Positions 49,935 through 64,000 are shown, counted from the first letter of the stretch. The stretch: 64,000 nucleotides of DNA from a bacterium (GCA_965205865.1 CBDBHR010000028.1:192001-256000); one strand, 5' to 3'. Numbers and translations: made by a program. Notes: generated by a model from the letters alone, not told the origin.

Positions 49935-50011
49935 GGGCCCATAGCTCAGTTGGTTAGAGCTGCCGACTCATAATCGGCCGGTCCCTGGTTCGAGTCCAGG
50001 TGGGCCCACCA
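49935..50011 (+). tRNA. tRNA with CAT anticodon, most likely tRNA-Ile2 (lysidine-modified)
   Basis: GGGCCCA/TGGGCCC acceptor stem, anticodon arm GCCGA-CTCATAA-TCGGC, GGTTCGAGTCC T-arm, encoded CCA; lacks initiator features. Confidence 0.93.
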
Positions 50012-50044
50012 AACCGTTCAAAATCACAAGCAGGAAGAAGAGGC

Positions 50045-52780
50045 ATGGCAACACTTGAAACACTGACCTTCGGATCCCTTGTTCGCGGAGTGGCTCCGGA
50101 CGGGCCCACTGAGGTCGTCAACGTCAAGTGGTTCGGCGACTCGGCGGTCGAACTTACATTCAAGATACCAACCACTGGGCTCGTGGGAACTCGGCTCCTC
50201 TACCGGGATGACGAAGCCAGTTTGGAGGTGCTCGAGCGCGGGCTTCCATGGTCCTTCGATGGGGACGGCCACCTCTTCCGTCTCGTCTCCGAGGCCCAGA
50301 GAATCCGGTTAGCCCACCTCTTCGACCCGGTACTCGCCGTTCACACGTCCATTGTGGATCCTTTACCTCACCAGATCACAGCAGTGTACGACTCGATGCT
50401 GACCCGCCAACCGCTGCGTTTTCTTCTTGCCGATGACCCGGGAGCCGGTAAGACGATTATGGCCGGGTTGCTGGTAAAAGAACTCGTAGCCCGTGGTGAC
50501 CTGGAGCGTTGCCTGGTAGTGTGTCCGGGCAACCTGGCCGAGCAGTGGCAAGACGAACTCTACCGTCGATTCCAGTTGCCGTTTGAGATTATGACCAACG
50601 ACAAGCTGGAGGCCGCGCGTACGGGAAACTGGTTCTCCGAGACGCCTTTGGCCATTGCGCGTCTCGACAAGCTGGCGCGTGACGTGGATGTTCAAGCCCT
50701 GCTCCGCGCCTGCGAAGGCGGATGGGACTTGGTGATCTGCGACGAGGCCCACAAGATGTCGGCCTCTTTCTTTGGCGGCGAGATCAGGTACACCAAACGC
50801 TACCGCTTGGGTCAGATGCTCTCGACTCGCACTCGCCACTTCCTGTTGCTGACAGCAACTCCGCATAATGGCAAGGAAGAAGACTTCCAACTGTTTATGG
50901 CCCTATTGGATGGCGACCGCTTCGAAGGCCGCTTCCGGGATGGGGTACACACTGCCGACGTTACGGACCTGATGCGTCGCATGGTCAAGGAGAGGCTGTT
51001 CAAGTTCGATACCACGCCGTTGTTCCCGGAACGTCGCGCCTACGCGGTTCCTTACAAGCTGTCCGATAATGAGGCCCGTTTGTACCGGGAGGTGACCGAC
51101 TACGTGCGGGAAGAATTCAACCGCGCCGAAGCTCTTCAGAACGACAAACGTGCGGGAACCATAGGATTTGCCCTCACCATCCTGCAACGACGACTGGCGT
51201 CCTCGCCCGAGGCTATCTACCAGTCCCTTCGTAGACGGAAGGAGAGGCTGGAGAGTCGTCTCCGTGAGCTTCAACTGTTGCAACGAGGCTCGCAGGTCTC
51301 GGTGTCCCTCTCTGCAAGCGTCCCAGACTGGGACGAGGAAGACCTTGTGGACCTGGAGGACGCTCCCGGTGAAGAGGTCGCAGCGGCCGAGGAAGAGATA
51401 CTGGACCGCGCTACGGCTGCGCGGACGGTTGGTGAGCTTGAGGCCGAGATCCAAAGTCTGCGCCGGCTGGAATCGCTGGCGCAGACGGTACGGTCCAGTG
51501 GCGAAGACAAGAAATGGCAAGAACTTGCCGATCTTCTCAACAAGCTGTTTACCAATGCAGCGAAAGCAACCGGAGAGTTGTTCGTACCCTCTCAGCATCA
51601 GAAACTCGTCATCTTTACCGAATATCGGGATACCCTCAACTACCTGCGCCAACGGATTGTAACTCTCTTGGGTCGCCAGGAGTCAGTTGTCATGATTCAC
51701 GGCGGTATCGGGAGAGAGGAAAGGCATCGGGGAGTACTCCGGCAAAGCTCAGCGCTTGTCGACGACAATGACGCAGGTGACAGGCCTCGGGTCCTCTTGT
51801 ACTTGGAGCACAGCATCCAAGACGGAAGCCATACGCGCTCCGGGGAACAGAGGACCATCTCCAAGAGGACTCTCTACGTGGGACTGGATGCGGATTCCAC
51901 GGTTTTAGGCCAGGACTATGCGCCTTATCTCGACTACCGGCCTTTGGGTAATGAGGAACCAAGCCTGGAGAAGATAGTCAATCGCCCCGAGTGTAGCTGG
52001 ATCAACTGCGACCTGGAAGCGAAGGCCGTCGAATATGCCGTCTCTCATCTGGTGCCCACCCACCTTGAAGAGCTACGGTCGCGTAAGATGGAACTCCTTT
52101 CAAAAACAGAGGCAGCGGTCAAGGAACGCCTGACCAAGGAGATCGCCTACTGGGACCACCGGGCCGCCGACCTCCAGTTGCAGGAGCAAGCCGGAAAGCC
52201 CAATGCGCGCCTGAATTCCTCCGAAGCTCGCCGCAGGGCCGATGACCTGCAAGCACGCTTGCAAAAACGCATGGATGAAATTCAACGCGAGCGTCAGCTG
52301 TCGCCACTGCCCCCTGTTGTGCTGGGCGGCGTGCTGGTGGTGCCATCCGGACTCCTTCGCAAGATGACCGGTGTGGTCAGCGCGCCTCCGGCGAGTCGAG
52401 ACACGCAAGCGGCTGCGGCCAGGGCCAGGGTTGCGGTCATGGAAGTCGAGCGCGGACTTGGATTCGAGCCAGTGGATCGAGAGTCGGACAAGCTTGGCTA
52501 TGATGTCGAAAGCCGCGTGCCTGGCACCGGCAAGCTACGGTTCATCGAGGTCAAGGGCAGGGTTCAGGGCGCGTCAACCGTGACGGTCACCAAGAACGAG
52601 GTGCTCACCTCCCTGAACAAACCGGAGGACTACATCCTGGCAATCGTGGAGTTCCAAAGTGACGGGGCGGGTCATGTCCACTACGTCCGCAGACCCTTTC
52701 GCCGGGAGCCGGACTTTGGCGTGACCAGCGTCAACTACGACCTGCCGAAGTTGCTGGCTCGTGCCGAGGTACCGTCATGA
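50045..52780 (+). pseudogene. SNF2-family helicase with C-terminal DUF3883 nuclease-like domain, internally deleted
   Basis: LLADDPGAGKT, DEAH, LTATPH, IFTEYRDT present; after IHGGIGREER (~51720) helicase motifs V and VI are absent; ends GYDVES...FIEVKG. Confidence 0.82.
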
Positions 52781-55550
52781 TCGTTCGTAAGAAGCTGATA
52801 GAGGTGGACCTTCCACTGGACGAGATCAATGCGGAGTCCAAGCGGGAAAAGTCGATCAGGCATGGGCACCCTTCCACGCTTCACTTGTGGTGGGCGCGCA
52901 GGCCACTGGCCGCCTGCCGCGCCGTCATCTTTGCCAGCATGGTGGATGACCCATCCTCTTGCCCTGACGAATTCCCCACAGATGAAGAGCAACTCGCCGA
53001 ACGCACCCGGCTTCACAACATCATCCGCCAGATCGTCAAGTGGGAGAGCACCGACGAGAGGAAACCCGCATCAAGGGAGGTTAAGAATGAAGCCAGATAT
53101 GAGATTGCTCGTTCCGTTGCTCGCTCCCGCGGAGAGACCCCGTCCGACAAGGACAGGCCAACCGATGTGCTACGTTACTTGAATGACAACGCGCCGCCTA
53201 TCTACGACCCCTTCGCCGGGGGCGGTTCCATTCCCTTGGAGGCGCAGCGCCTTGGTCTGCGGGCCATTGCGTCCGATCTCAACCCTATCGCGGTGCTCAT
53301 CAACAAGGCGCTCATTGAGTTGCCTCCCAAGTTTGCCGGCAGACCGCCCGTGAACCCGGACGCCTCTGGTATCATGGGTGACACGGCTTGGCATGGGTCC
53401 GCCGGGCTTGCCGACGACATCCGATACTATGGCAAATGGATGAGAGACGAGGCGGAGAGGCGAATCGGACATCTGTACCCAAAGGTCCGGCTTCCCGATG
53501 GAGGCGTGGCCACGGTGATTGCCTGGTTGTGGGCGCGTACTGTCCCTTGTCCTAACCCGGCATGTGGGATAACGATGCCGTTGATGGTGACCTTTTAACT
53601 GTCCAAAAAGGCGAACAATCAGCATTGGACGAGGCCGGTTGTCGATCATGGGGCAAACGTTATTTCCTTCATAGTGCAGGACCACGAGGGCGGTGTGCCG
53701 AAGGAAGGCACGGTGAACCGCAATGGGGCGACTTGCTTTGCCTGCAACACTACCTCGCCACTGTCATACGTCCGTGAGCAGTCCAGATCCGGAAACATGG
53801 GCGAGCAGATGACGGCGATAGTTGCCGAAGGCGACCGCAAACGGTTGTTTCTATCGCCGACGGAGGAGCACGTCCATGTAGCGCTATCAGCACAACCGAA
53901 TGAATGTTCTATTCCCCAACAAAAAATGCCCACGAGCGCTTACAAGGTAAGCGGTCGTGCGTACGGGATTACACACTGGCACCAACTGTTTACAAATCGG
54001 CAGTTGACAGCGCTCTCCACCTTCAGCGAATTGCTGCCAACCGTGCGGGCTACGATGTTCAGGCATGGAGCAGATGAAGAGTACGCTGATGCCATCTGTA
54101 CATACATCGCTCTTGTTGTGGGAAGGAGTGCAAATAGTTGTTCTAGTTTTGCAAGATGGCAAAACACCGGCGACAAAGTCGCCGGTGTTTTCGCGCGTCA
54201 GGCAGTTCCTATGATGTGGGACTTCGCAGAGACCAACTTGTTCTGTACTTCGACACAGAATTGGATGGCTCAGGTGGAATGGATTGCAAAGGTTATCGAG
54301 CAACTACCTCCCAACGTAAACGTTGGAGAAGCGTACCAAGCAGATGCTTCCACTTCAATACTCGCTAGCGATGGTTCTGTAATAGTTACAGATCCGCCCT
54401 ACTATGACAACATCAGTTATGCAGAGCTCTCCGACTTCTTCTATGTGTGGCTGAGACCTCTGCTCCGCGATGCATACCCTGAACTGTTCGCTGGCATCCT
54501 GGTTCCCATAGACGAAGAGATGATAGCTGCACCCCGATTCGAGAATGCGAGAGAGCGATTTGAAGAACTGATGAGCAAGACCCAGAGTTTCCCTCGTCCA
54601 TCTTCTACGCCTACAAGCAGCAAGAGGAAGATCGGGATGGCAGTACTTCTACCGGCTGGGACACCATGCTTTCTGCGCTGGTCTTAGCTGGATTTCAAAT
54701 AGTCGGCACTTGGCCTATGCGCACGGAGCGCTCTGGAAGGTCTAACGCTTTGAGTGCGAATTCGTTAGCCTCTTCAGTCATTCTCGTCTGCCGAAAGCGA
54801 CACCATGACGCTCCCGTTGCGACGCGCCGGGAGTTTGTCACCGCCTTAAGGTACGAGTTGCCTAATGCGCTGCGCCAGATGCAGACGGGCAACATTGCAC
54901 CTGTGGATTTAGCCCAGGCCGCTATCGGTCCGGGGATGGCGGTATTTACCCGCTACGCTAAAGTATTAGATACCGATGGCGAGGCGGAGTCTGTGCGTGA
55001 AGCCCCCGCTCTCATCAATCAGACGTTGGATGAGGTGATGGCGGAGCAAGAGGGCGACTTCGACGCGGACACCCGCTGGGCGTTGGCCTGGTTCGAGCAA
55101 TCGGGCTTTACGGAAGGTGAATTCGGCATGGCCGAGACGCTCTGCAAAGCCAAGAACACAAGTGTGTCAGGATTGGTGGAGGCGGGTATACTGGAATCAG
55201 GCGCGGGCAAGGTGCGCCTGCTCCGGCCCAACGAATTGAAGGAAGACTGGGACCCGGAGAATGAACGAGGATTCACGATTTGGGAGGCAACTCATCACCT
55301 GGTCCGCGTCCTGGACAAGGGTGAGCTTGTCGCAGCCGAGATGATTGCCAAGCTTGGAGTCAATGCGGAAACCTCCCGTGAATTGGCCTACCGCCTCTAC
55401 CGTATCTGCGACCGGAAAAAGCGTTCCCGGGAAGCCCTGGGCTACAATTCTTTGGTTCAAAGTTGGCCGGAGATCGCTCGCTTGGCTCGAGAAGTTGGCA
55501 GAGCGCCCCGGCAAACGTCCTTTATCAGCGATGAGGGTACTACGCAATGA
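52777..55550 (+). pseudogene. DUF1156-containing N6-adenine DNA methylase, disrupted
   Basis: LHLWWARRPL, DPFAGGGSIPLEA, TDPPYY motifs; in-frame TAA at 53596-53598 and frameshift near 54580 before PEFPSSIFYAYKQ. Confidence 0.88.
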
Positions 55551-55900
55551 CCATTGAGACGATCATTTCTACCATGGTGGACCGAATCGTCGGGCGATTC
55601 CAACCGGCTCGCGTGGTGCTGTTCGGTTCCTATGCCCGTGGAACCGCCATCGAGTCGAGCGACGTGGATCTGCTTGTAGTGATGGGGGACGTTCAAGACA
55701 AACGACGTGCAGCGGTAGAGATAAGACGGTCTCTGGGCGACCTCACTATCAGTAAGGACATCGTGGTGACCACGCCGGACGAAATCGCGAGTCGAGGTGA
55801 CGTGGTGGGAAGCATACTCCACACCGCTCTTCGAGAAGGAGTGACCGTCTACCGGAAAGTTGGTCAGTACGGACTACGCACGCCGACTTGGCCGAATTGA
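55547..55900 (+). CDS. Minimal nucleotidyltransferase (MNT antitoxin)
   Basis: LFGSYARG...SDVDLLVV; natural end near EGVTVY apparently lost by a deletion. Confidence 0.88.
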   Translation: MTIETIISTMVDRIVGRFQPARVVLFGSYARGTAIESSDVDLLVVMGDVQDKRRAAVEIRRSLGDLTISKDIVVTTPDEIASRGDVVGSILHTALREGVTVYRKVGQYGLRTPTWPN

Positions 55901-56043
55901 CTGAGTGGGCGGTGGAAACAAGATACCCCGGCAACTGGCCGGAACCTGCGGATGCGGATGCAACCCGCGCCGAATCGGAGGCCCGCGCAATTTACAATTC
56001 CATAGCGGCAGAATTCAAGCGTCGTGGGGCGCTTGCAGAGTAA
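55852..56043 (+). pseudogene. C-terminal fragment of a HEPN-domain protein
   Basis: Not in the ORF track. Manual translation: PESWSVRTTHADLAELTEWAVETRYPGNWPEP...AEFKRRGALAE*; LT.WAV.TRYPG is typical of MNT-partner HEPNs. Confidence 0.75.
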
Positions 56044-56061
56044 CTTTTTAGAAAGGATCAC

Positions 56062-59000
56062 ATGGCAGCAACCAACAGAGATCGCGTAGGAAACGCGATG
56101 GACACGCTTAAAGACGGGCTCATGCCGTTCGTTTCACGTGAATTCATCAATCACTACGGGGGGAGTTCCGCGCAAGCGTTACAGAAAATCCTGGGAGAGT
56201 CGGTCTTGGATGGGAAAGAGCACTTTTCCAACATGGACGCTGCGGCGCTCCTGAGAGTTATGTGGGAGTCCTGGAACGAGGTCTATCGCGACACCCTTGG
56301 TTACGCTGAGCGGAGTCTCGTGAGCGAGTTGCGGGACATCCGTATTCGTTGGGCGCACCAAAAAGCATTCTCCGGCGATGATGCCTACCGGGCTCTCGAT
56401 TCGACTCACCGCCTCCTTTTGGCAGTCTCGGCTCCGGAGGCCGGGAAAATCGAAGGCATGAAGATGGAACTCCTGCGCGTGCGCTTCGACGAGCAGGCAA
56501 GGACGCAACGGCGCAAGACCGCCAGCGCAGTTGTAGAAAGCCAGGGAATATACGGTCTCGCCCCCTGGCGTGAAGTGGTCAGTCCGCATCAGGACGTCGC
56601 TAGCGGCAGATACCAGCAGGCCGAATTTGCGGCAGACCTCTGGCAGGTGCAGCTCGGAGAGGGGTCACCCGAATACCTCGACCCCTCTGAGTTCTTCCGC
56701 CGCACCTACTTGACGGAGAGTCTGAAACAGCTATTGAGCGGCGCAACGCAACGGCTTTCCGGCTTGGGTGGGGACCCGGTATTGCAGCTTCAGACGACCT
56801 TCGGCGGTGGCAAGACACACTCTATGCTGGCCCTTTACCATCTCTTCTCCGGAGCGACGGTCAATAAACTGTCCGGTATGGATACGGTTATGCAGGATAC
56901 CGGAGTCGAGTCACTTCCTCTGGTTAACCGTGTGGTCCTGGTCGGTAACCGGATTTCACCGGGCAATCCCGTCACCAAGGCTGATGGCACGGAAGTACGA
57001 ACGTTGTGGGGAGAGCTTGCCTGGCAGCTTGGACAGGCGGCGGGTGGCGAGTCTGAAGCCCGCCGCGCCTACGAACGGGTGCGTGTAGACGACGAACGAG
57101 CCACCAACCCCGGAGACGTGCTGCGCGAACTGCTGAACCAATACGCTCCCTCCCTCATCTTGATCGACGAATGGGTGGCCTATGCCCGCCAACTTCATGA
57201 CGAGGGCGACCTTCCCGCCGGGAGTTTCGAGACCCAGTTCACCTTCGCCCAAGCCCTCTCCGAATCGGCGAAGCTGGCGAGGGACTGCCTCCTGGTCATC
57301 AGCCTTCCGGCCTCGGACGCCACCGAATCACCCCATGCTCAAGCTGACGACGTTGAGGTGGGTGGACGGAGGGGCAGGGCCGCGCTCAGCCGTCTGGATA
57401 ACGTTATCGGGCGTCTCGAGTCCTCGTGGCGTCCGGCCAGTGCGGAGGAGAGCTTCGAGATTGTGCGCCGTCGTCTGTTTCGACCCATTGTCGATCCGTC
57501 AAACTTCGCAACCCGCGACAACGTGGCCCGGGCCTTCTGTGACCTCTACCGCGCAAGCAACCAGGAGTTTCCTCCGGAGTGCGCAGAGGCAGATTATGAG
57601 AAACGAATCAAGGCGGCGTATCCCATTCACCCGGAGGTCTTCGAGCGCCTCTATAGCGATTGGTCGACGTTACGGAGCTTTCAACGTACGCGTGGCGTCT
57701 TGAGGTTCATGGCGACGGTGATTCACAACCTCTGGGAAAAGGGTGACCGCAATCCTTTGATACTGCCGGCTCACCTTCCCATGGACGATCCCCGGGTGCA
57801 AACCGAACTCGCGCGTTATCTCCCGGAAAACTGGCTCCCCGTCATCGAGCGTGACATAGACGGCGTCAACTCTCTTCCCTTGAGGATTGACAGCGAGGTC
57901 CCAAACCTGGGTAAGTACAGTGCCTGCCGTAGGGTGGCCCGCTCGATCTATCTGGGTTCCGCGCCCATCCCGGGGGCGGCCAACCAGGGAATCGAAGACC
58001 GGAGGATCAAGCTGGGGTGCGTCATTCCGGGAGAGTCTCCCGCAGTATTCGGGGACGCGATGAGGCGACTGGGAAGCAAGGCAACTTACCTGTACCAGGA
58101 TGGCGCGCGCTACTGGTACTCGACTCAGCCGACTGTAGCCAATCTCGCCGAGAACCGGGCCGAGGAGTACCGAAGAAACCGTGACAAGGTAGACGAGGAG
58201 ATTGCTCGGAGGCTCCGGGAAGAACTGAAAAATCGGGGCGATTTCAATAAGGTCCACATCCTTCCTTCATCGGGTCACGACGTGCAAGATGACCAGGATG
58301 TGAGCCTGGTGATACTCGGCCCGAACTACCCTCATACTCGTGAAGAAGGATCAGATAGCCGTGGCATCACAGCTGCCAAATCCATACTGGAGTCGCGGGG
58401 AAACGCGCCGCGCCTGTTCAGGAACACCCTGTCCTTTTTGGCGGCGGATGAAACGCGCCTTCAAGAACTGGAGGACGGAATAAGGCGATTCCTGGCCTGG
58501 CAGTGGATTCTCGCCGACAGAGAACCTCTCGACCTTCCACCACACCAAGTACGGCAGGCCGAATCCCAACTAACCGCCGCCGAGAGCGCCGTCATTGCGC
58601 GTATCGGGGAGACTTACCAGTGGCTGCTGGCGCCTGTGCGGACAACTCCCCAATCAGACTTGGAATGGCAAGCCATCAGACTGAGCGGACAAGGATCTCT
58701 TGCAGACCGAGCCAGTAAAAGAATGCGCAACGATGAGTTGCTGGTAACCAACTTCGCCGGGACTCGCCTCCGTATGGAACTGGATCGCATACCCCTGTGG
58801 CGAGGAGACCACGTTTCGGTTCGACAACTCGTGGAAGACTTCGCGCGTTATCCCTATTTGCCCAGGCTCAAGGATCCGGCTGTGCTGCTCGAAGCAATAC
58901 GCAATGGACTGTCACTCCTCACCTGGGAGCAGGACTCTTTCGCATATGCCGACTACTATGATGAAGTAGAAGAAAGATATCGTGCTCTGCGATTCAGAGA

Positions 59001-59433
59001 ACAGATTGCTATTTCCGATAATGACCCTGGCTTGGTTGTCCGTCCGGAGGTAGCTCGTAAGCAAATAGATACGGAGGTACTGCGCGCTGCCAATGCCGCC
59101 GAGGGAAAGGGATCCACCTACGTCAAAGAATCGGAAGAACAGGGGAAGGTGCATGAGAATTCGGCAGAAGAACTTACTACGTCCACTCCACACCCTGCGG
59201 CTAGGCGCTACCACGGGTCAGTGAAACTGGACCCCACGCGTGTCGGGCGAGACGCGAGCCAGGTAGCAGACGAGGTGATCGCTCACCTGGCGGGTCTGAT
59301 GGGATCGGAAGTGAGGTTGACCCTGGAAATCGAAGCCGACATCCCGGACGGCGCACCGGAGCACGTCAAACGAATAGTTATCGAGAACAGCCGGAACCTG
59401 AATTTCGACGACAGCAGCTTTGAGAATGAGTAG
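56062..59433 (+). CDS. DUF499 AAA+ ATPase with N-terminal Swt1-like HEPN domain
   Basis: ELRDIRIRWAH (R-x4-H), PWREVVSPH.DV, EFAADL, Walker A FGGGKTH, Walker B LILIDE, YPIHPE, FQRTRGVLR; intact 1123 aa. Confidence 0.9.
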   Translation: MAATNRDRVGNAMDTLKDGLMPFVSREFINHYGGSSAQALQKILGESVLDGKEHFSNMDAAALLRVMWESWNEVYRDTLGYAERSLVSELRDIRIRWAHQKAFSGDDAYRALDSTHRLLLAVSAPEAGKIEGMKMELLRVRFDEQARTQRRKTASAVVESQGIYGLAPWREVVSPHQDVASGRYQQAEFAADLWQVQLGEGSPEYLDPSEFFRRTYLTESLKQLLSGATQRLSGLGGDPVLQLQTTFGGGKTHSMLALYHLFSGATVNKLSGMDTVMQDTGVESLPLVNRVVLVGNRISPGNPVTKADGTEVRTLWGELAWQLGQAAGGESEARRAYERVRVDDERATNPGDVLRELLNQYAPSLILIDEWVAYARQLHDEGDLPAGSFETQFTFAQALSESAKLARDCLLVISLPASDATESPHAQADDVEVGGRRGRAALSRLDNVIGRLESSWRPASAEESFEIVRRRLFRPIVDPSNFATRDNVARAFCDLYRASNQEFPPECAEADYEKRIKAAYPIHPEVFERLYSDWSTLRSFQRTRGVLRFMATVIHNLWEKGDRNPLILPAHLPMDDPRVQTELARYLPENWLPVIERDIDGVNSLPLRIDSEVPNLGKYSACRRVARSIYLGSAPIPGAANQGIEDRRIKLGCVIPGESPAVFGDAMRRLGSKATYLYQDGARYWYSTQPTVANLAENRAEEYRRNRDKVDEEIARRLREELKNRGDFNKVHILPSSGHDVQDDQDVSLVILGPNYPHTREEGSDSRGITAAKSILESRGNAPRLFRNTLSFLAADETRLQELEDGIRRFLAWQWILADREPLDLPPHQVRQAESQLTAAESAVIARIGETYQWLLAPVRTTPQSDLEWQAIRLSGQGSLADRASKRMRNDELLVTNFAGTRLRMELDRIPLWRGDHVSVRQLVEDFARYPYLPRLKDPAVLLEAIRNGLSLLTWEQDSFAYADYYDEVEERYRALRFREQIAISDNDPGLVVRPEVARKQIDTEVLRAANAAEGKGSTYVKESEEQGKVHENSAEELTTSTPHPAARRYHGSVKLDPTRVGRDASQVADEVIAHLAGLMGSEVRLTLEIEADIPDGAPEHVKRIVIENSRNLNFDDSSFENE

Positions 59434-59630: not shown

Positions 59631-61059
59631 TCATATCCAGAAGGTCTCAGATTCGACCTCAAGCTCTCGGTAAGTTTCACGTCTCGCTGTCCGGCGAACC
59701 CGCACCAACCTGGCAATTTCCACAACAGGGGAAGCGCGAAGCTTGTCCAAGCTGGAATTCAAGACCGTTGTCATTGAACCAACGGCCGATCCGAGTTCAG
59801 GAAATATCGCAGGTTCCCAATCCGCATACCAGTGAATCCAACGAGAAAGCACGTCGTCTCCTGCTTCGAGGCGGATCTCAGAAGGACCGCATTGGACATA
59901 GGCAGACGTTCCGAACACGTTTGGTGACGCGAGTCTCACGTTTGGTGACGCGAGTCTGATGTTAAAAGCCATTTCAGTGTGGACGCGTCCAATGTACTCC
60001 GGTAAAACGCCTTGGGTCATGTCAAGAGGGTGGTCGATGGAAAGGGGATCGATACCTCCCTTCCGGCCCACCAACCCTGCCATTTTGCCGAGACGATTTT
60101 TCAGAATTGGCAAGTCGAGTGTTTCCGCCTCGGCAGGATCGGCGGTGAAGCCGGACGGGCCGATGGTCAAGCTCATGTCGAATTCAACGAAACCCGTTGT
60201 GTCAAAATCGACCACTCGGAGGGCAAGTGGTACTTCGCCGGGATTCACAGCGGCTTCTGAGCGCGCCCAGAGTTTCTGCGCAAGTTCCTTTGTACCCCCG
60301 GCGTCGCAAGAGAGAAGGTTCCTCGCCCAATCTGGTCTGTCGATGGGCTCCAGGTCGGCCAATCCTCTGTTCATCGTAAGAGCAAGCATAGCGCAGTCTT
60401 CCGCGACTTCATGCGACACTGCTCCTATTATGGCGGCAAAAGCATGTGTCCGAAGATACGCGGAGACGTAAAGTTCCCGTTGCCCATGGTCGAACTGACC
60501 CGCGACGACGCCGGTCCCCTCTGGAGCAGAAGTAGGGGTACTCGGCAGCTGGACGGGGATGGGTCACCTGAAGCCAGCGCCAGTCATGCTCCCAGCGTTT
60601 CCTGAATGGGAAATTGAACAACTCTTGAAGTCGTGTGAGCTTACTTGAAAAGATCGATGCTACTGCCCACTTGCGGTAAAGATCGAACCAAGCCTCCTGA
60701 TGCTGTGGCAACGGGGCCGGTTCGGATGGTGAAATTGCGTAACGAAATGGATAAAGGCCGCTCGCATCGGTGAAGTTTCTCTTCAGAAGCAAATCCGAAA
60801 GATGTGAAGGGGCTTGGACGGCCTTCGCTACGTCGGCGAACTCGAAGTAGGCACCGAGATCAAACGCGTCAATAATGCCAAGACCTAGTATCGCTTCGCT
60901 CTCCAATTGACGGGCACTGATCCAGTTGAGAAGACCATTCGCAGCCTCCCTCTCTTCCTCACGAATAAGGCGCGCCAAACTACGAGCCGCTTCCCATCGT
61001 ACCCGCGGGACCGGCCACAGCAGTCGTTCGAGCAGCATTAAGAGTGCGGGATCAGTCAT
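59631..61059 (-). pseudogene. Hypothetical protein (~475 codons) split by a frameshift
   Basis: ATG 61059 overlaps the upstream TGA (ATGA) with a GGAG RBS; reading switches frame near 60500 into GQFDHGQRELYVSAYLRT and continues into ORF 59631-60419. Confidence 0.65.
59916..59957. repeat. Perfect 21-bp tandem duplication
   Basis: CACGTTTGGTGACGCGAGTCT twice; encodes RLASPNV twice on the minus strand. Confidence 0.95.
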
Positions 61060-64000
61060 CTCGACCACTCCGGCGCTTCAATTGGCTGTTCTGTCAACTC
61101 TTCTTTGAAGACTCGTGCCATCTCCAAAGCGTATGCCCGCGCTACATCCAGTTCGCCAACTTCGACCAAGAAATAGACAAGGAGAGACAATCCTATGACA
61201 ATGCCGTTTCGCTCGCTCTTGGTTGCGTATACGGGTTTTGCTGTGTTTCTGATGAACTCTCGCCACTGCTCGCGATAATGCTGAGCCACCTTCCGTATTC
61301 TGGCCTGCGCTTCGTCTCTGCTCGTAAACCATCGCTGCCATCCGGAACGCGAGACATGGGCGCGGATGAGCCAGGGAAGAGCCTTGGACCGGCCCTGCGC
61401 CTTGAGTGCGATGTCGAACGCCACATCCAGCGCATCATCAAAATCGAGATAATGCCTCGTCTCTGAGGTCGCAGATTCGAGATTGGTCAGCGCCTCTTCG
61501 ACATGCCCTGCTCTTTCCCAAAATCTCAGCCACTCGGTGACGAGTTTTCGCCGATAATAATAAGCGCGCGCTTCGCGTGTTGCGCTCAAGTAACCTCGCA
61601 AGCACCCGGGAGGAAACTCACTTGGATTGGGAACTGACACTTCTGCTTCCCCGGACTCAGAGTCATCGACAAAAGAGGTCGGGTTTCCAACTACCGTTAA
61701 TTCCTTCTGCTCGGGCGTCTCGTCGATAACCTTACCGGTTTTCCTCCTGATAGCTATCAGGGCCGCATTGGTCTGGGGCCGGGCCTTCGAACAAATATTC
61801 TCCACCGCGCGAGCTTCAGAAGGAACGATGTAAGTCTCCAGCAACGCTCGCCCTGTCCGCGACTCGACTTGGTCGGTTTCAACGAATGCAATTGCCAACG
61901 CTTCGGCATATCGCCATTGTTCGTCGCGGATAAGGTGCGCGTAGCAGGCCGGAACCCTTTTGGGAAAGTGTGCGGCGATCGCCTTGTAATATTCTTCACG
62001 GACATAGTTGGTTTCGTCTCCGTCTGTGTAATCGGTTATGGCTTCGAACTCGCCGGCAAGATCAAGCATGGCTTTTCGAGCGCCCGCATCGCCGTTTTTC
62101 ACCAAGAGATCCAGTGACTCGAGGACCTCGTCTGCAAACATGTCCTTGTGCCAATCGTAACCGAGCAGACACCCTACAGCTCGTCTCAGTTCCTTCTGAG
62201 CCAGAGGTGCGAGGCCGTTGTCGGAGGCGAATATTGCCAGTTTAGCAGCGGTCGTAGCTCGCTCGTTGAATCCAGTGATCTTGGTGTCGAGGTAGCATCC
62301 AATGCGCTCAACCAGTACCTGTGCCGCATCCTCTGAATGTAATGGCAAGCGCCGCTCAGTAAAGCCTTCAAGCCAGATTTCGTCCAGCCAAAACGGCGAT
62401 ACTGAAGCGGATTCAATGTCGCTCATGTCAATGCAAGCATTCGCGTCGAGACCTTTAGCGATAGTACAAAGGTCGACTGCGATATCTCGAAGCGCGAGAC
62501 GGACGGCTATGAGGTGGCGTTTCACTTCATGAGAACTCGATGTGGACTGTTGCAATTCGAAAACCCTGTAGATGTCCTGAAGGGTTGGCCATTTCCGCGA
62601 TTCTTTCCATCCTTCTGCGATGTTTTCTGCTAACCGTTCCAGCGCTCTCACGGCATCGCTCAGCCAAGTTTTCCGGGCGTGCTCTGGGATCTTCGACCAT
62701 CCTTGGGCTTTGCCTCCAGATAGTGCTGCAGCAAGCGCAACGAAGAATGCCTCGTACAAGACACCACGCATCTCTACTGCAAACATCGTGTCAGAGCCTT
62801 CACTTCCGACGAACAAGCGAGAGAGATCCTTTTTCGTCCGAGATCGTCTGGTGGCGCCACCTTCCTTGAGAAATGCGAGGCAACGGATTGCCGGATGTGA
62901 GAGTGCTTTGAGTTCGGGTTTCGCCGCTGGGTTAAGACCTTCGAAACACAGTGCCACGAACACATCGCGATCTAAATCGTGCCTGGACCATTGCTTGCCT
63001 ATCCCGAAAACGTTTTCGAAATTGCGAGCAAGAATAGATTCCTGAGTGTAGGCAGCGATCAGCGCTTCGGCATTCGCATCGCGCTTCGTACATGCCAAGA
63101 CACGCTGGGCGCTTTGCGATCCGTCGCTAGCGAGCACGGCGACAATGGCGTGAGCCAACTCGTGATACTCTGCGCTGCTCTCCGTCTCATTGTCATGGCG
63201 ACGCGCAATCCGCCGCTTCAACTCTGTGATGGCGTCCCGTGCTACGACCTCGCGGATTGATTCATCTGTGTTGCGTACGATGAAGGGCAGCAGGCCTTCA
63301 GGCGCGCGGTGGAGTTCTGTACGTAGGAGGACCCCTATGTAGGGATCAACAGACAGCGAAGCCGCGATCTCTTGAAAGAGTGGCCATTCATTCGTCTGGA
63401 AATCCGGCCCATTTACTGCACGCGTCTTGAGCAAACGAAGGGCGAGTAGTCGGGGAAGATCGAACGCGTCGAATGCAGCCTTCTCCGCATAGTCGAGTAT
63501 GGTGATTAGTTGCTCGATCGGATATCCGACGACAAGCGAATTGATCGCCCATTCACGGTTGGGTTCAACGAGAAGGTCTGATGGATCGTCGAGTTGCGCT
63601 TTGGTGATCCACAACCAAGCCCAATGCCAATACGCCGGAGCTCGTGTCTTTAACCAAGCGAGAACATCGGACGCATGCAGTTTGAAAATGGCTTCATGCT
63701 CTTGAAGGTCTCGCACGAAGGCAAACAAACTTCCGTGGAACGGCCGCACCTCCATTTCTCGATAGTCAAGCAGGTGATTGATCTCGTCGCGCGCGGTGAG
63801 ACTTTCGTTGCTGCGACCAAAGCATTCGCGCATTGCGAAGGGAGGAGGTCCAAACTCCAGACCTGCCAGGACATGCAAGATTATCTGAGCCTTCGCACTC
63901 ATCCTCTCCCAGATTGACCTGTAGTAGTCGCGAATATCGCCGGTGGGACAGGCAGGAAGTGCTACCACATCCTCCGCTGTCACTGCATTGCCAGCTATGA
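61056..64000 (-). CDS. Very large helical protein, C-terminal part; probable STAND/NACHT-type NTPase
   Basis: Frame open to the window edge (~980 codons visible). LP..P.GDIRDYY..IW and PFHGSLFAFV resemble the helical/winged-helix region after STAND NTPase domains; Walker motifs are not in the window. Confidence 0.5.
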   Translation of the reverse strand, partial: IAGNAVTAEDVVALPACPTGDIRDYYRSIWERMSAKAQIILHVLAGLEFGPPPFAMRECFGRSNESLTARDEINHLLDYREMEVRPFHGSLFAFVRDLQEHEAIFKLHASDVLAWLKTRAPAYWHWAWLWITKAQLDDPSDLLVEPNREWAINSLVVGYPIEQLITILDYAEKAAFDAFDLPRLLALRLLKTRAVNGPDFQTNEWPLFQEIAASLSVDPYIGVLLRTELHRAPEGLLPFIVRNTDESIREVVARDAITELKRRIARRHDNETESSAEYHELAHAIVAVLASDGSQSAQRVLACTKRDANAEALIAAYTQESILARNFENVFGIGKQWSRHDLDRDVFVALCFEGLNPAAKPELKALSHPAIRCLAFLKEGGATRRSRTKKDLSRLFVGSEGSDTMFAVEMRGVLYEAFFVALAAALSGGKAQGWSKIPEHARKTWLSDAVRALERLAENIAEGWKESRKWPTLQDIYRVFELQQSTSSSHEVKRHLIAVRLALRDIAVDLCTIAKGLDANACIDMSDIESASVSPFWLDEIWLEGFTERRLPLHSEDAAQVLVERIGCYLDTKITGFNERATTAAKLAIFASDNGLAPLAQKELRRAVGCLLGYDWHKDMFADEVLESLDLLVKNGDAGARKAMLDLAGEFEAITDYTDGDETNYVREEYYKAIAAHFPKRVPACYAHLIRDEQWRYAEALAIAFVETDQVESRTGRALLETYIVPSEARAVENICSKARPQTNAALIAIRRKTGKVIDETPEQKELTVVGNPTSFVDDSESGEAEVSVPNPSEFPPGCLRGYLSATREARAYYYRRKLVTEWLRFWERAGHVEEALTNLESATSETRHYLDFDDALDVAFDIALKAQGRSKALPWLIRAHVSRSGWQRWFTSRDEAQARIRKVAQHYREQWREFIRNTAKPVYATKSERNGIVIGLSLLVYFLVEVGELDVARAYALEMARVFKEELTEQPIEAPEWSR

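Follow-up and report, generated by a model that had tools for sequence, protein, structure and literature searches.

Analysis of a 64,000-nucleotide stretch of a bacterial genome (GCA_965205865.1, CBDBHR010000028.1:192001-256000; hereafter the window) revealed a pair of overlapping genes on the minus strand at its far edge: a large gene running out of the window and a shorter gene, termed here the partner. With a probability of roughly 80%, the two genes together make up one antiviral STAND (Avs) receptor, Avs1/Avs3-like and divided between two polypeptides, the partner being the tail of the sensor on a chain of its own. The partner is assigned to the end of the sensor because of its linkage to the large gene, its fusion with the large protein in relatives, the match of folds and the homology of profiles. 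Receptors of this kind are known; the pair is a variant with two genes, Avs1/Avs3-like by fold and profile and outside both families by curated models.

The large gene and its junction with the partner gene

The large gene is represented in the window by a minus-strand frame of 980 codons (61056..63998), open up to the edge. The window is C28:192001-256000 of a 30-contig genome, and the sequence past its edge was taken from the next 20 kb (L001). The whole gene, located at L001 2056..6474, which corresponds to window positions 61056..65474, comprises 1472 codons from a TTG. Its start is likely the ATG at codon 8, behind GAGG, and the database entry of the large protein (P0273) is exactly the 1465-aa form beginning with this ATG.

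In the large protein's N-terminal part, residues 21-199 are matched by the Pfam family Cap4_nuclease (E 8.9e-6; 26.5 bits, just over the cut-off of 26.2), and residues 268-441 by the Pfam families NACHT, NPHP3_N and AAA_16; of these, NACHT barely passes its cut-off (26.8 bits, cut-off 26.7), and NPHP3_N scores 35.1 bits (cut-off 24.8). Walker A is represented by GPPGRGKST at residue 281 and Walker B by VVVDGLDH at residue 369. The residues D, Q and K of the nuclease motif, as well as GxxGKST, are near-invariant in the 27-row alignment of the large family (A2). The remaining ~1000 residues, the sensor, matched no Pfam family. Among PADLOC models, the nuclease-effector and LmuA models match the nuclease head, and Avs1b matches over the NTPase alone. 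Relatives of the large protein are named 'ATP-binding protein' or 'AAA family ATPase' in NCBI and UniRef, and matches in the ESM Atlas were solely to unnamed clusters, 'hypothetical protein' and 'ATP-binding protein'.

The large gene ends in GAG TGG TCG AGA TGA, and its stop codon overlaps the start of the partner gene, which has a ribosome-binding site of its own (Table 1). Of 18 related loci, by our own reading, 12 show a 4-nt ATGA/GTGA overlap at the junction and 4 show TGATG or TAATG, the other 2 being unclear. Since the stop/start junction is conserved in 18 of 18 related loci, the coupling goes beyond chance, and the ATGA overlap provides for translational coupling of the large gene and the partner. 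A scan of the operon for promoters and terminators returned 3 and 4 sites, which is not above shuffled sequences (means 4.1 and 7.2).

These data agree with an initial annotation of the window, which had described a frame of about 980 codons running off the edge and the overlap of its TGA with the next ATG behind GGAG (read in the sequence at 61056..61071), and had quoted the segments GDIRDYY, PFHGSL and LLWPVPRVRWEAARSLARL, all of them found in the translations. Walker motifs and an N-terminal effector, which it had suggested seeking past position 64,000, are the motifs and the Cap4-type nuclease described above.

A second copy of the pair was not found in the same genome by tblastn. Five other very long frames of this genome gave weak matches to a PADLOC Avs2 model in their P-loop regions (E 8.5e-5 to 0.46), namely C29:175795-176151, C24:165828-165980, C29:192366-192434, C23:44521-44658 and C3:91888-92025, in frames of 1564, 2115, 1256, 1971 and 2129 aa, respectively; the genome may hold several further giant STAND-like genes.

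Distribution, linkage and fusion of the partner family

The partner belongs to no family of Pfam, NCBIfam or PADLOC. When 7999 candidates were scored, 212 proteins fell into its own family (E up to 0.001), and a set of 1.84 billion proteins yielded 341 cluster representatives. The 150 listed representatives include 6 fused proteins (1913-1999 aa), 94 free-standing proteins (430-560 aa) and 50 shorter pieces; the identity of the free-standing partners reaches down to 23%.

Linkage of the two genes was found in both directions. All five loci found via the large protein contain an intact ORF (open reading frame) of 470-471 codons overlapping its stop, and all 18 loci found via the partner alignment (A1) contain a homologue of the large gene directly upstream on the same strand, two of them on short contigs where only the 3' part of the large gene is visible. 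According to the record titles, the loci belong to Latescibacterota, Gemmatimonadota, Bryobacterales, Caldilineaceae and several Proteobacteria.

In six relatives (P0193, P0223, P0246, P0256, P0259 and P0272), both proteins form one chain with the partner at its C-terminus. The fused protein P0272 aligns with the large protein over residues 19-1470 (E 2e-65), and the partner aligns with residues 1467-1922 of P0193 (E 4e-28). The one-chain relatives contain the same Pfam NTPase families, with Cap4_nuclease listed for one of the six (P0272), and differ from the pair in that a single polypeptide takes the place of two genes. In a quick maximum-likelihood tree of the first ~640 residues, built from 42 rows (21 split-type, 6 fused and 15 Avs3a) and rooted on Avs3a, the 21 split-type proteins all fell into a single clade (SH-aLRT 99) that lies within a grade of fused forms. 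This topology fits one gene fission within the sampled set, which takes in split rows with 43% or more identity to the window protein, without the large genes of the most distant free partners, and in which the branch leading to Avs3a is very long.

Recognised defence genes were found within 6 kb of the pair in 12 of the 16 flanked loci, for 10 by direct testing and for 2 via the likeness of ORFs. In some related loci the pair lies inside type I restriction-modification operons beside an AbiU/AIPR gene; in others it is adjacent to a type IIG enzyme, a type III methylase, HamB, AriAB, PD-T4-2 or a type II restriction-modification pair.

Fold and profile similarity to Avs3

Structural models were obtained with a predicted local distance difference test (pLDDT) of 83.5 for the partner and, by AlphaFold2, of 86.8 for the 980 visible residues of the large protein. 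In a Foldseek search against the PDB, the only significant match of the partner was 8DGC, the structure of SeAvs3 with terminase (E 1.1e-6, probability 1.00), the next match having E 0.18. The model of the large protein matched the same entry with E 3.7e-7, probability 1.00 and TMq 0.49-0.52, followed by a match with E 8.6e-3 and TMq 0.12. The large protein maps on residues 481-1539 of SeAvs3, with 737 residues aligned, and the partner on residues 1546-2070; both maps are collinear and meet within seven residues, at just 11-12% identity in the fold alignments. The HEAT-like N-terminus of the partner falls where the last ~525 residues of SeAvs3 begin.

Profile comparison was performed with an alignment of 25 Avs3a proteins (A5), relatives of the canonical Avs3a P0392; several of them are named by NCBI 'AVAST type 3 anti-phage nuclease/ATPase Avs3a'. 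The alignment of A2 with A5 by hhalign gave a probability of 98.8 and E 5.3e-17 over 1380 columns (6-1522 to 8-1604). In a genome with a homologous pair, the PADLOC Avs3a model gave two weak collinear matches, one in the large frame (E 0.012) and one in the partner (E 0.020); in the latter, model positions 1550-1601 fall on the first 52 partner codons, in the same register as the fold map.

Predicted binding of the two proteins

Residues 960-1472 of the large protein were co-folded with P0013, an intact close relative of the partner. The score was 0.90 (runs 0.90, 0.90 and 0.89) against 0.00 for the best of three controls; among 157 solved complexes 116 attain the mark applied, and among 215 mismatched pairs 2 do. 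At least 92% of contacts are common to the runs, and the partner has a pLDDT of 87 or higher. On the partner side, the predicted interface consists of the conserved N-terminal helices (residues 3-39) together with residues 169-192, 237-246 and 410-416. The model supports binding of the large protein and the partner to each other.

Break of the partner gene

In the genome under study the partner gene reads from its ATG through 216 codons to a stop (ORF 60409..61068, 219 codons), and the homologous frame resumes at +1 in an ORF of 262 codons (59631..60419). The initial annotation had treated the partner as one frame of ~475 aa; that frame is split by an extra G, and the break had gone unnoticed. 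Because of the extra G, the partner is truncated after residue 187; the docking helices are kept and the beta-rich domain is lost, and the receptor is therefore probably blind or inactive in this genome.

The 3' part of the gene also carries a tandem duplication (Table 1), which is present in P0013, an intact metagenomic protein of 475 aa from a cluster of 14 sequences, and is missing from 20 other aligned family members. Public contigs of runs X4, X5 and X6, from three other studies, contain near-identical DNA without the extra base at 60499; those of X5 and X6, covering most of the stretch, differ from the window by 20 or 21 other letters. Near-identical populations keep the partner intact.

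The reverse situation, a broken large gene with an intact partner, was observed in two of the 18 related loci: L009 1569-6013 (946 + 531 codons) and L024 1622-6007 (322 + 1124 codons).

Table 1. Positions of the features of the gene pair, numbered from the first letter of the window
Feature	Position	Strand	Evidence and remarks
Large gene, visible 3' part (residues 493-1472)	61056..64000	-	End of the STAND module and all-helical sensor of ~1000 aa; ORF tables, translation
Large gene, part past the window	up to 65474-equivalent	-	Cap4 nuclease 21-199, Walker A 281-289, Walker B 369-376; numbered from TTG codon 1
Surface on which the partner is predicted to dock (large-protein residues 1171-1249, 679-757 of the visible part)	61728..61964	-	Co-fold interface
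GGAG ribosome-binding site	61068..61071	-	Sequence; 8 nt before the partner ATG, within the 3' end of the large gene
ATGA overlap of the two genes	61056..61059	-	Sequence; partner ATG 61059-61057, large-gene TGA 61058-61056, two shared bases
Partner, in-frame 5' part, helical HEAT-like N-terminal half	60502..61059	-	98% identical to P0013 residues 1-187; model secondary structure
Partner, frameshift site	60499..60501	-	GGG, GG in five intact relatives; DNA alignment; original frame stops at 60409-60411
Partner, 3' part in +1 frame, rest of the helical half and beta-rich C-terminal domain	59631..60498	-	95% identical to P0013 residues 214-475
Partner, in-frame 21-bp tandem duplication (RLASPNV twice)	59916..59957	-	DNA alignment; not present in five intact relatives

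Comparison with Avs3a and Avs1b

The pair shares with Avs3a the order of its parts, namely a Cap4-type nuclease, a STAND NTPase, a long helical sensor and a C-terminal lobe; residues 481-2070 of SeAvs3, with both lobes of the sensor fold, are accounted for by the large protein plus the partner, whose summed length is ~1940 aa, compared with about 2000-2100 aa in Avs3a. Avs3a is one polypeptide, whereas here two genes are present (1465-1472 and ~470 codons), with the break at a position equivalent to Avs3 ~1540. The canonical Avs3a protein P0392 (2112 aa, 1990 bits on the PADLOC Avs3a model) has Avs3b directly downstream at its locus (L036), while the pair is without Avs3b, and the gene after the partner is the convergent HmaC. 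The identification of the partner itself as Avs3b was considered and dropped: the length differs, and the model gives no match. Curated Avs3a models of NCBIfam and PADLOC detect no similarity either in the large protein or in the fused relatives.

Avs1b is the only named defence family recognised by curated models in the NTPase region, with E 1.1e-10 for the window protein and up to 2e-18 for the fused relatives; the matched part is limited to model positions ~200-530 of 1924-1931. In the NCBI description Avs1b is a protease, whereas the large protein contains a Cap4 nuclease. A search for Avs1b in 401 genomes returned one partial NTPase match, in fragmentary ORFs. This match (L042, G325:C163:1624-5640; E 1.1e-32, model positions 198-531) lies amid short same-strand ORFs of 462, 424, 162 and 166 aa and may be one more Avs1-like gene that is broken or split.

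A 'split-TPR variant' of Avs1, linked in some cases to Upx, is mentioned in PMC13601566. Its sensor is split too, and the pair may belong to this variant. Among the matches of 56 flanking ORFs scanned with PADLOC, which includes a model of Upx, none was named so. In the literature on Avs3 and AVAST type 3 no description of a split Avs3 was found, the sole mention of a split being that for Avs1. Lee et al. counted 589 STAND clades and 684 sensor clusters (PMC12803255), and the tables of that work may well contain the family of the pair.

The initial annotation had proposed a split-sensor, Avs-like STAND system that could not be matched to a named type. The split-sensor part is borne out by the upstream NTPase and nuclease, the co-occurrence of the genes in all 18 loci, the fusion in 6 of 150 listed representatives and the SeAvs3 fold match; the likeness of the HEAT-like partner start to C-terminal regions of Avs proteins and the proximity of defence genes (12 of 16 loci) likewise turned out as it had anticipated. 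The novelty was overstated, since the pair is Avs1/Avs3-like by fold and by profile-profile comparison; curated models of both families did fail to name it.

Alternative explanations

A number of results weigh against the assignment of the pair to Avs receptors of the Avs1/Avs3 kind. No curated model accepts the family: in NCBIfam, at E up to 1, only Avs1b and an orc1 family were returned, the Avs1b model NF041810 scoring 29.2 bits against a cut-off of 1500 and covering model positions 307-490 only; the PADLOC Avs1b model scores 37.6 bits over the NTPase only (model positions 208-528 of 1924), and with the PADLOC Avs3a model PDLC02167, at E up to 10, this genome gave no match. The significant profile match relies on A2, which takes in six fused forms; the partner profile alone against A5 is not significant (probability 6.3, E 0.0058), the matched stretch being in the expected register, and hhalign against a single Avs3a sequence fails (probability 2.0 with the large-family profile and 0.15 with that of the partner). 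Searches of PDB sequences returned no match for the large protein with phmmer at E up to 1, and three matches for the partner profile with hmmsearch (E 0.18 to 1.5), none of them relevant. The passing co-fold score partly reflects, perhaps, likeness to the solved one-chain relative 8DGC. Four of the 16 flanked loci (L017, L018, L020 and L021) are without a recognised defence neighbour, and with the partner broken in this genome nothing here need be functional.

The partner could instead be a separate regulator, such as a brake that restrains the nuclease-NTPase in the manner of an inhibitor or antitoxin, or an adaptor displaced by a phage protein, its likeness to the Avs3 tail reflecting shared helical repeats only. 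We consider this very improbable: the partner forms the C-terminus of one-chain relatives that align end to end with the large protein, its fold map begins at Avs3 residue 1546, seven residues past the end of the large-protein map at 1539, and Avs3 is its sole significant Foldseek match (E 1e-6 against 0.18 for the next); the partner is also without any PADLOC match at E up to 1, and hence without a match to the Avs3b model. A split Avs receptor whose ligand is not the large terminase but a different phage protein, or several proteins, is a more serious possibility, although still the less probable one. The sensor would then have diverged from Avs3 beyond recognition by sequence, with which the low identity to SeAvs3 in the fold alignments is consistent; for numerous Avs families with TPR-like sensors, recognition of other core phage proteins has been reported (PMC13581612), as has the recognition of several different phage proteins by one Avs2 (PMC11564622). 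It is opposed by the collinearity of both sensor lobes with the terminase sensor Avs3 and by the proximity of the NTPase to that of Avs1b, Avs1 being called a terminase sensor and predicted to be structurally similar to Avs3 (PMC13601566).

As for the break, it may not be real, resulting from an assembly or sequencing error in a run of G or from a programmed +1 frameshift, so that the system would be functional in this organism. A length difference of one base in a short homopolymer (GG to GGG) is in line with this, as is the low depth (6.5) of the sole run with the extra base, X2. The Logan contig of X2, however, possibly from the source sample, is a second, independent assembly that contains the extra base and is identical to the window across 1438 of 1438 bases; the family uses no frameshift at this place, because the partner frame is open in 17 of 17 related loci of sufficient length; and the nearby HmaB gene is broken twice, which is consistent with decay of the island. 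An artefact or a programmed shift is thus unlikely, and the break looks like a real strain-level mutation.

Genomic context

A restriction-like operon on the plus strand (50000-59433) converges on the pair, as the initial annotation had stated, and was named Hma (HmaA, HmaB and HmaC) by PADLOC models. The pair was considered as a part of this operon and rejected as such, being located on the opposite strand and occurring without Hma in 18 of 18 related loci. The island from 50000 to ~65500, past the edge of the window (L001 1-6500), has a G+C content of 52-61%, while its flanks have 43-49%.

The methyltransferase HmaB (52777-55550, plus strand) is represented by three ORFs, one of 273 aa (model positions 7-294), one of 337 aa (330-631) and one of 294 aa (681-965), with an in-frame stop at 53596-53598 and a change of frame near 54666-54687; judging by these ORFs, the adjoining Hma system also looks decayed. 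In the stretch 55547-59433 (plus strand), a nucleotidyltransferase gene of 117 aa (NTP_transf_2 / Polbeta) was found between HmaB and HmaC, and HmaC contains an N-terminal Swt1-like HEPN domain ahead of the DUF499 ATPase; the Hma operon thereby includes a pairing of HEPN and a minimal nucleotidyltransferase. Beyond the pair, L001 6698-15546 contains genes for an IS4/5-family transposase, a 902-aa SNF2 helicase, for which ZorD and DpdE are the best PADLOC models, a Fic/DOC protein and a DDE_3 transposase.

Proposed mechanism and significance

In the proposed receptor, gene 1 (1465-1472 aa) encodes a Cap4-type PD-(D/E)xK nuclease together with a NACHT-like STAND NTPase and the sensor's first ~1000 residues, and gene 2 (~470 aa when intact) would encode the last part of the sensor, composed of a HEAT-like helical half and a beta-rich domain and equivalent to SeAvs3 ~1546-2070. 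The partner would use the helices at its N-terminus to dock on the gene 1 sensor and would complete the ligand pocket, in which a conserved phage protein, most likely the large terminase, would be clamped. Binding of the ligand would release the NTPase, which would drive tetramerisation; the Cap4 domains would then assemble and cut double-stranded DNA, and the infected cell would die before the spread of the phage. The ligand, the oligomer and the abortive outcome are those that we infer by analogy; given this model, terminase as the trigger has about even odds.

In PMC13601566, SeAvs3 is described as tetramerising upon binding of the phage large terminase and then degrading double-stranded DNA; Avs1, Avs2 and Avs3 are treated as terminase sensors, with a strong predicted structural similarity of Avs1 to Avs3. 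Activation of SeAvs3 and its cleavage of double-stranded DNA are also treated in 10.64898/2026.08.25.746987, where Y1714 and the H1770 loop are given as ATP-contacting residues; both fall in the stretch of SeAvs3 to which the partner corresponds.

It is conceivable, though unlikely, that the split serves a function instead of being a neutral fission, with the C-terminal lobe as a separately made, exchangeable or titratable subunit. Consistent with this reading, the split clade is large and old, the junction is conserved, and near-identical populations differ exactly by the frameshifting base. If it were true, the amount of partner relative to the nuclease-NTPase would set the trigger threshold, or loss or replacement of the partner would re-aim or silence the receptor; on/off changes of one base in the partner would let populations switch a costly sensor of abortive infection.

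The picture of how Avs proteins work is unchanged by these findings, and a split Avs1 variant is already in print. Defence finders based on Avs3a or Avs1b models miss the whole family, and several hundred unannotated proteins of ~470 aa can be read as C-terminal sensor lobes separated from an Avs1/Avs3-like receptor. A natural two-piece sensor is also handy for asking how the two lobes of Avs proteins clamp the ligand, since the lobes can be separately expressed, swapped and titrated.

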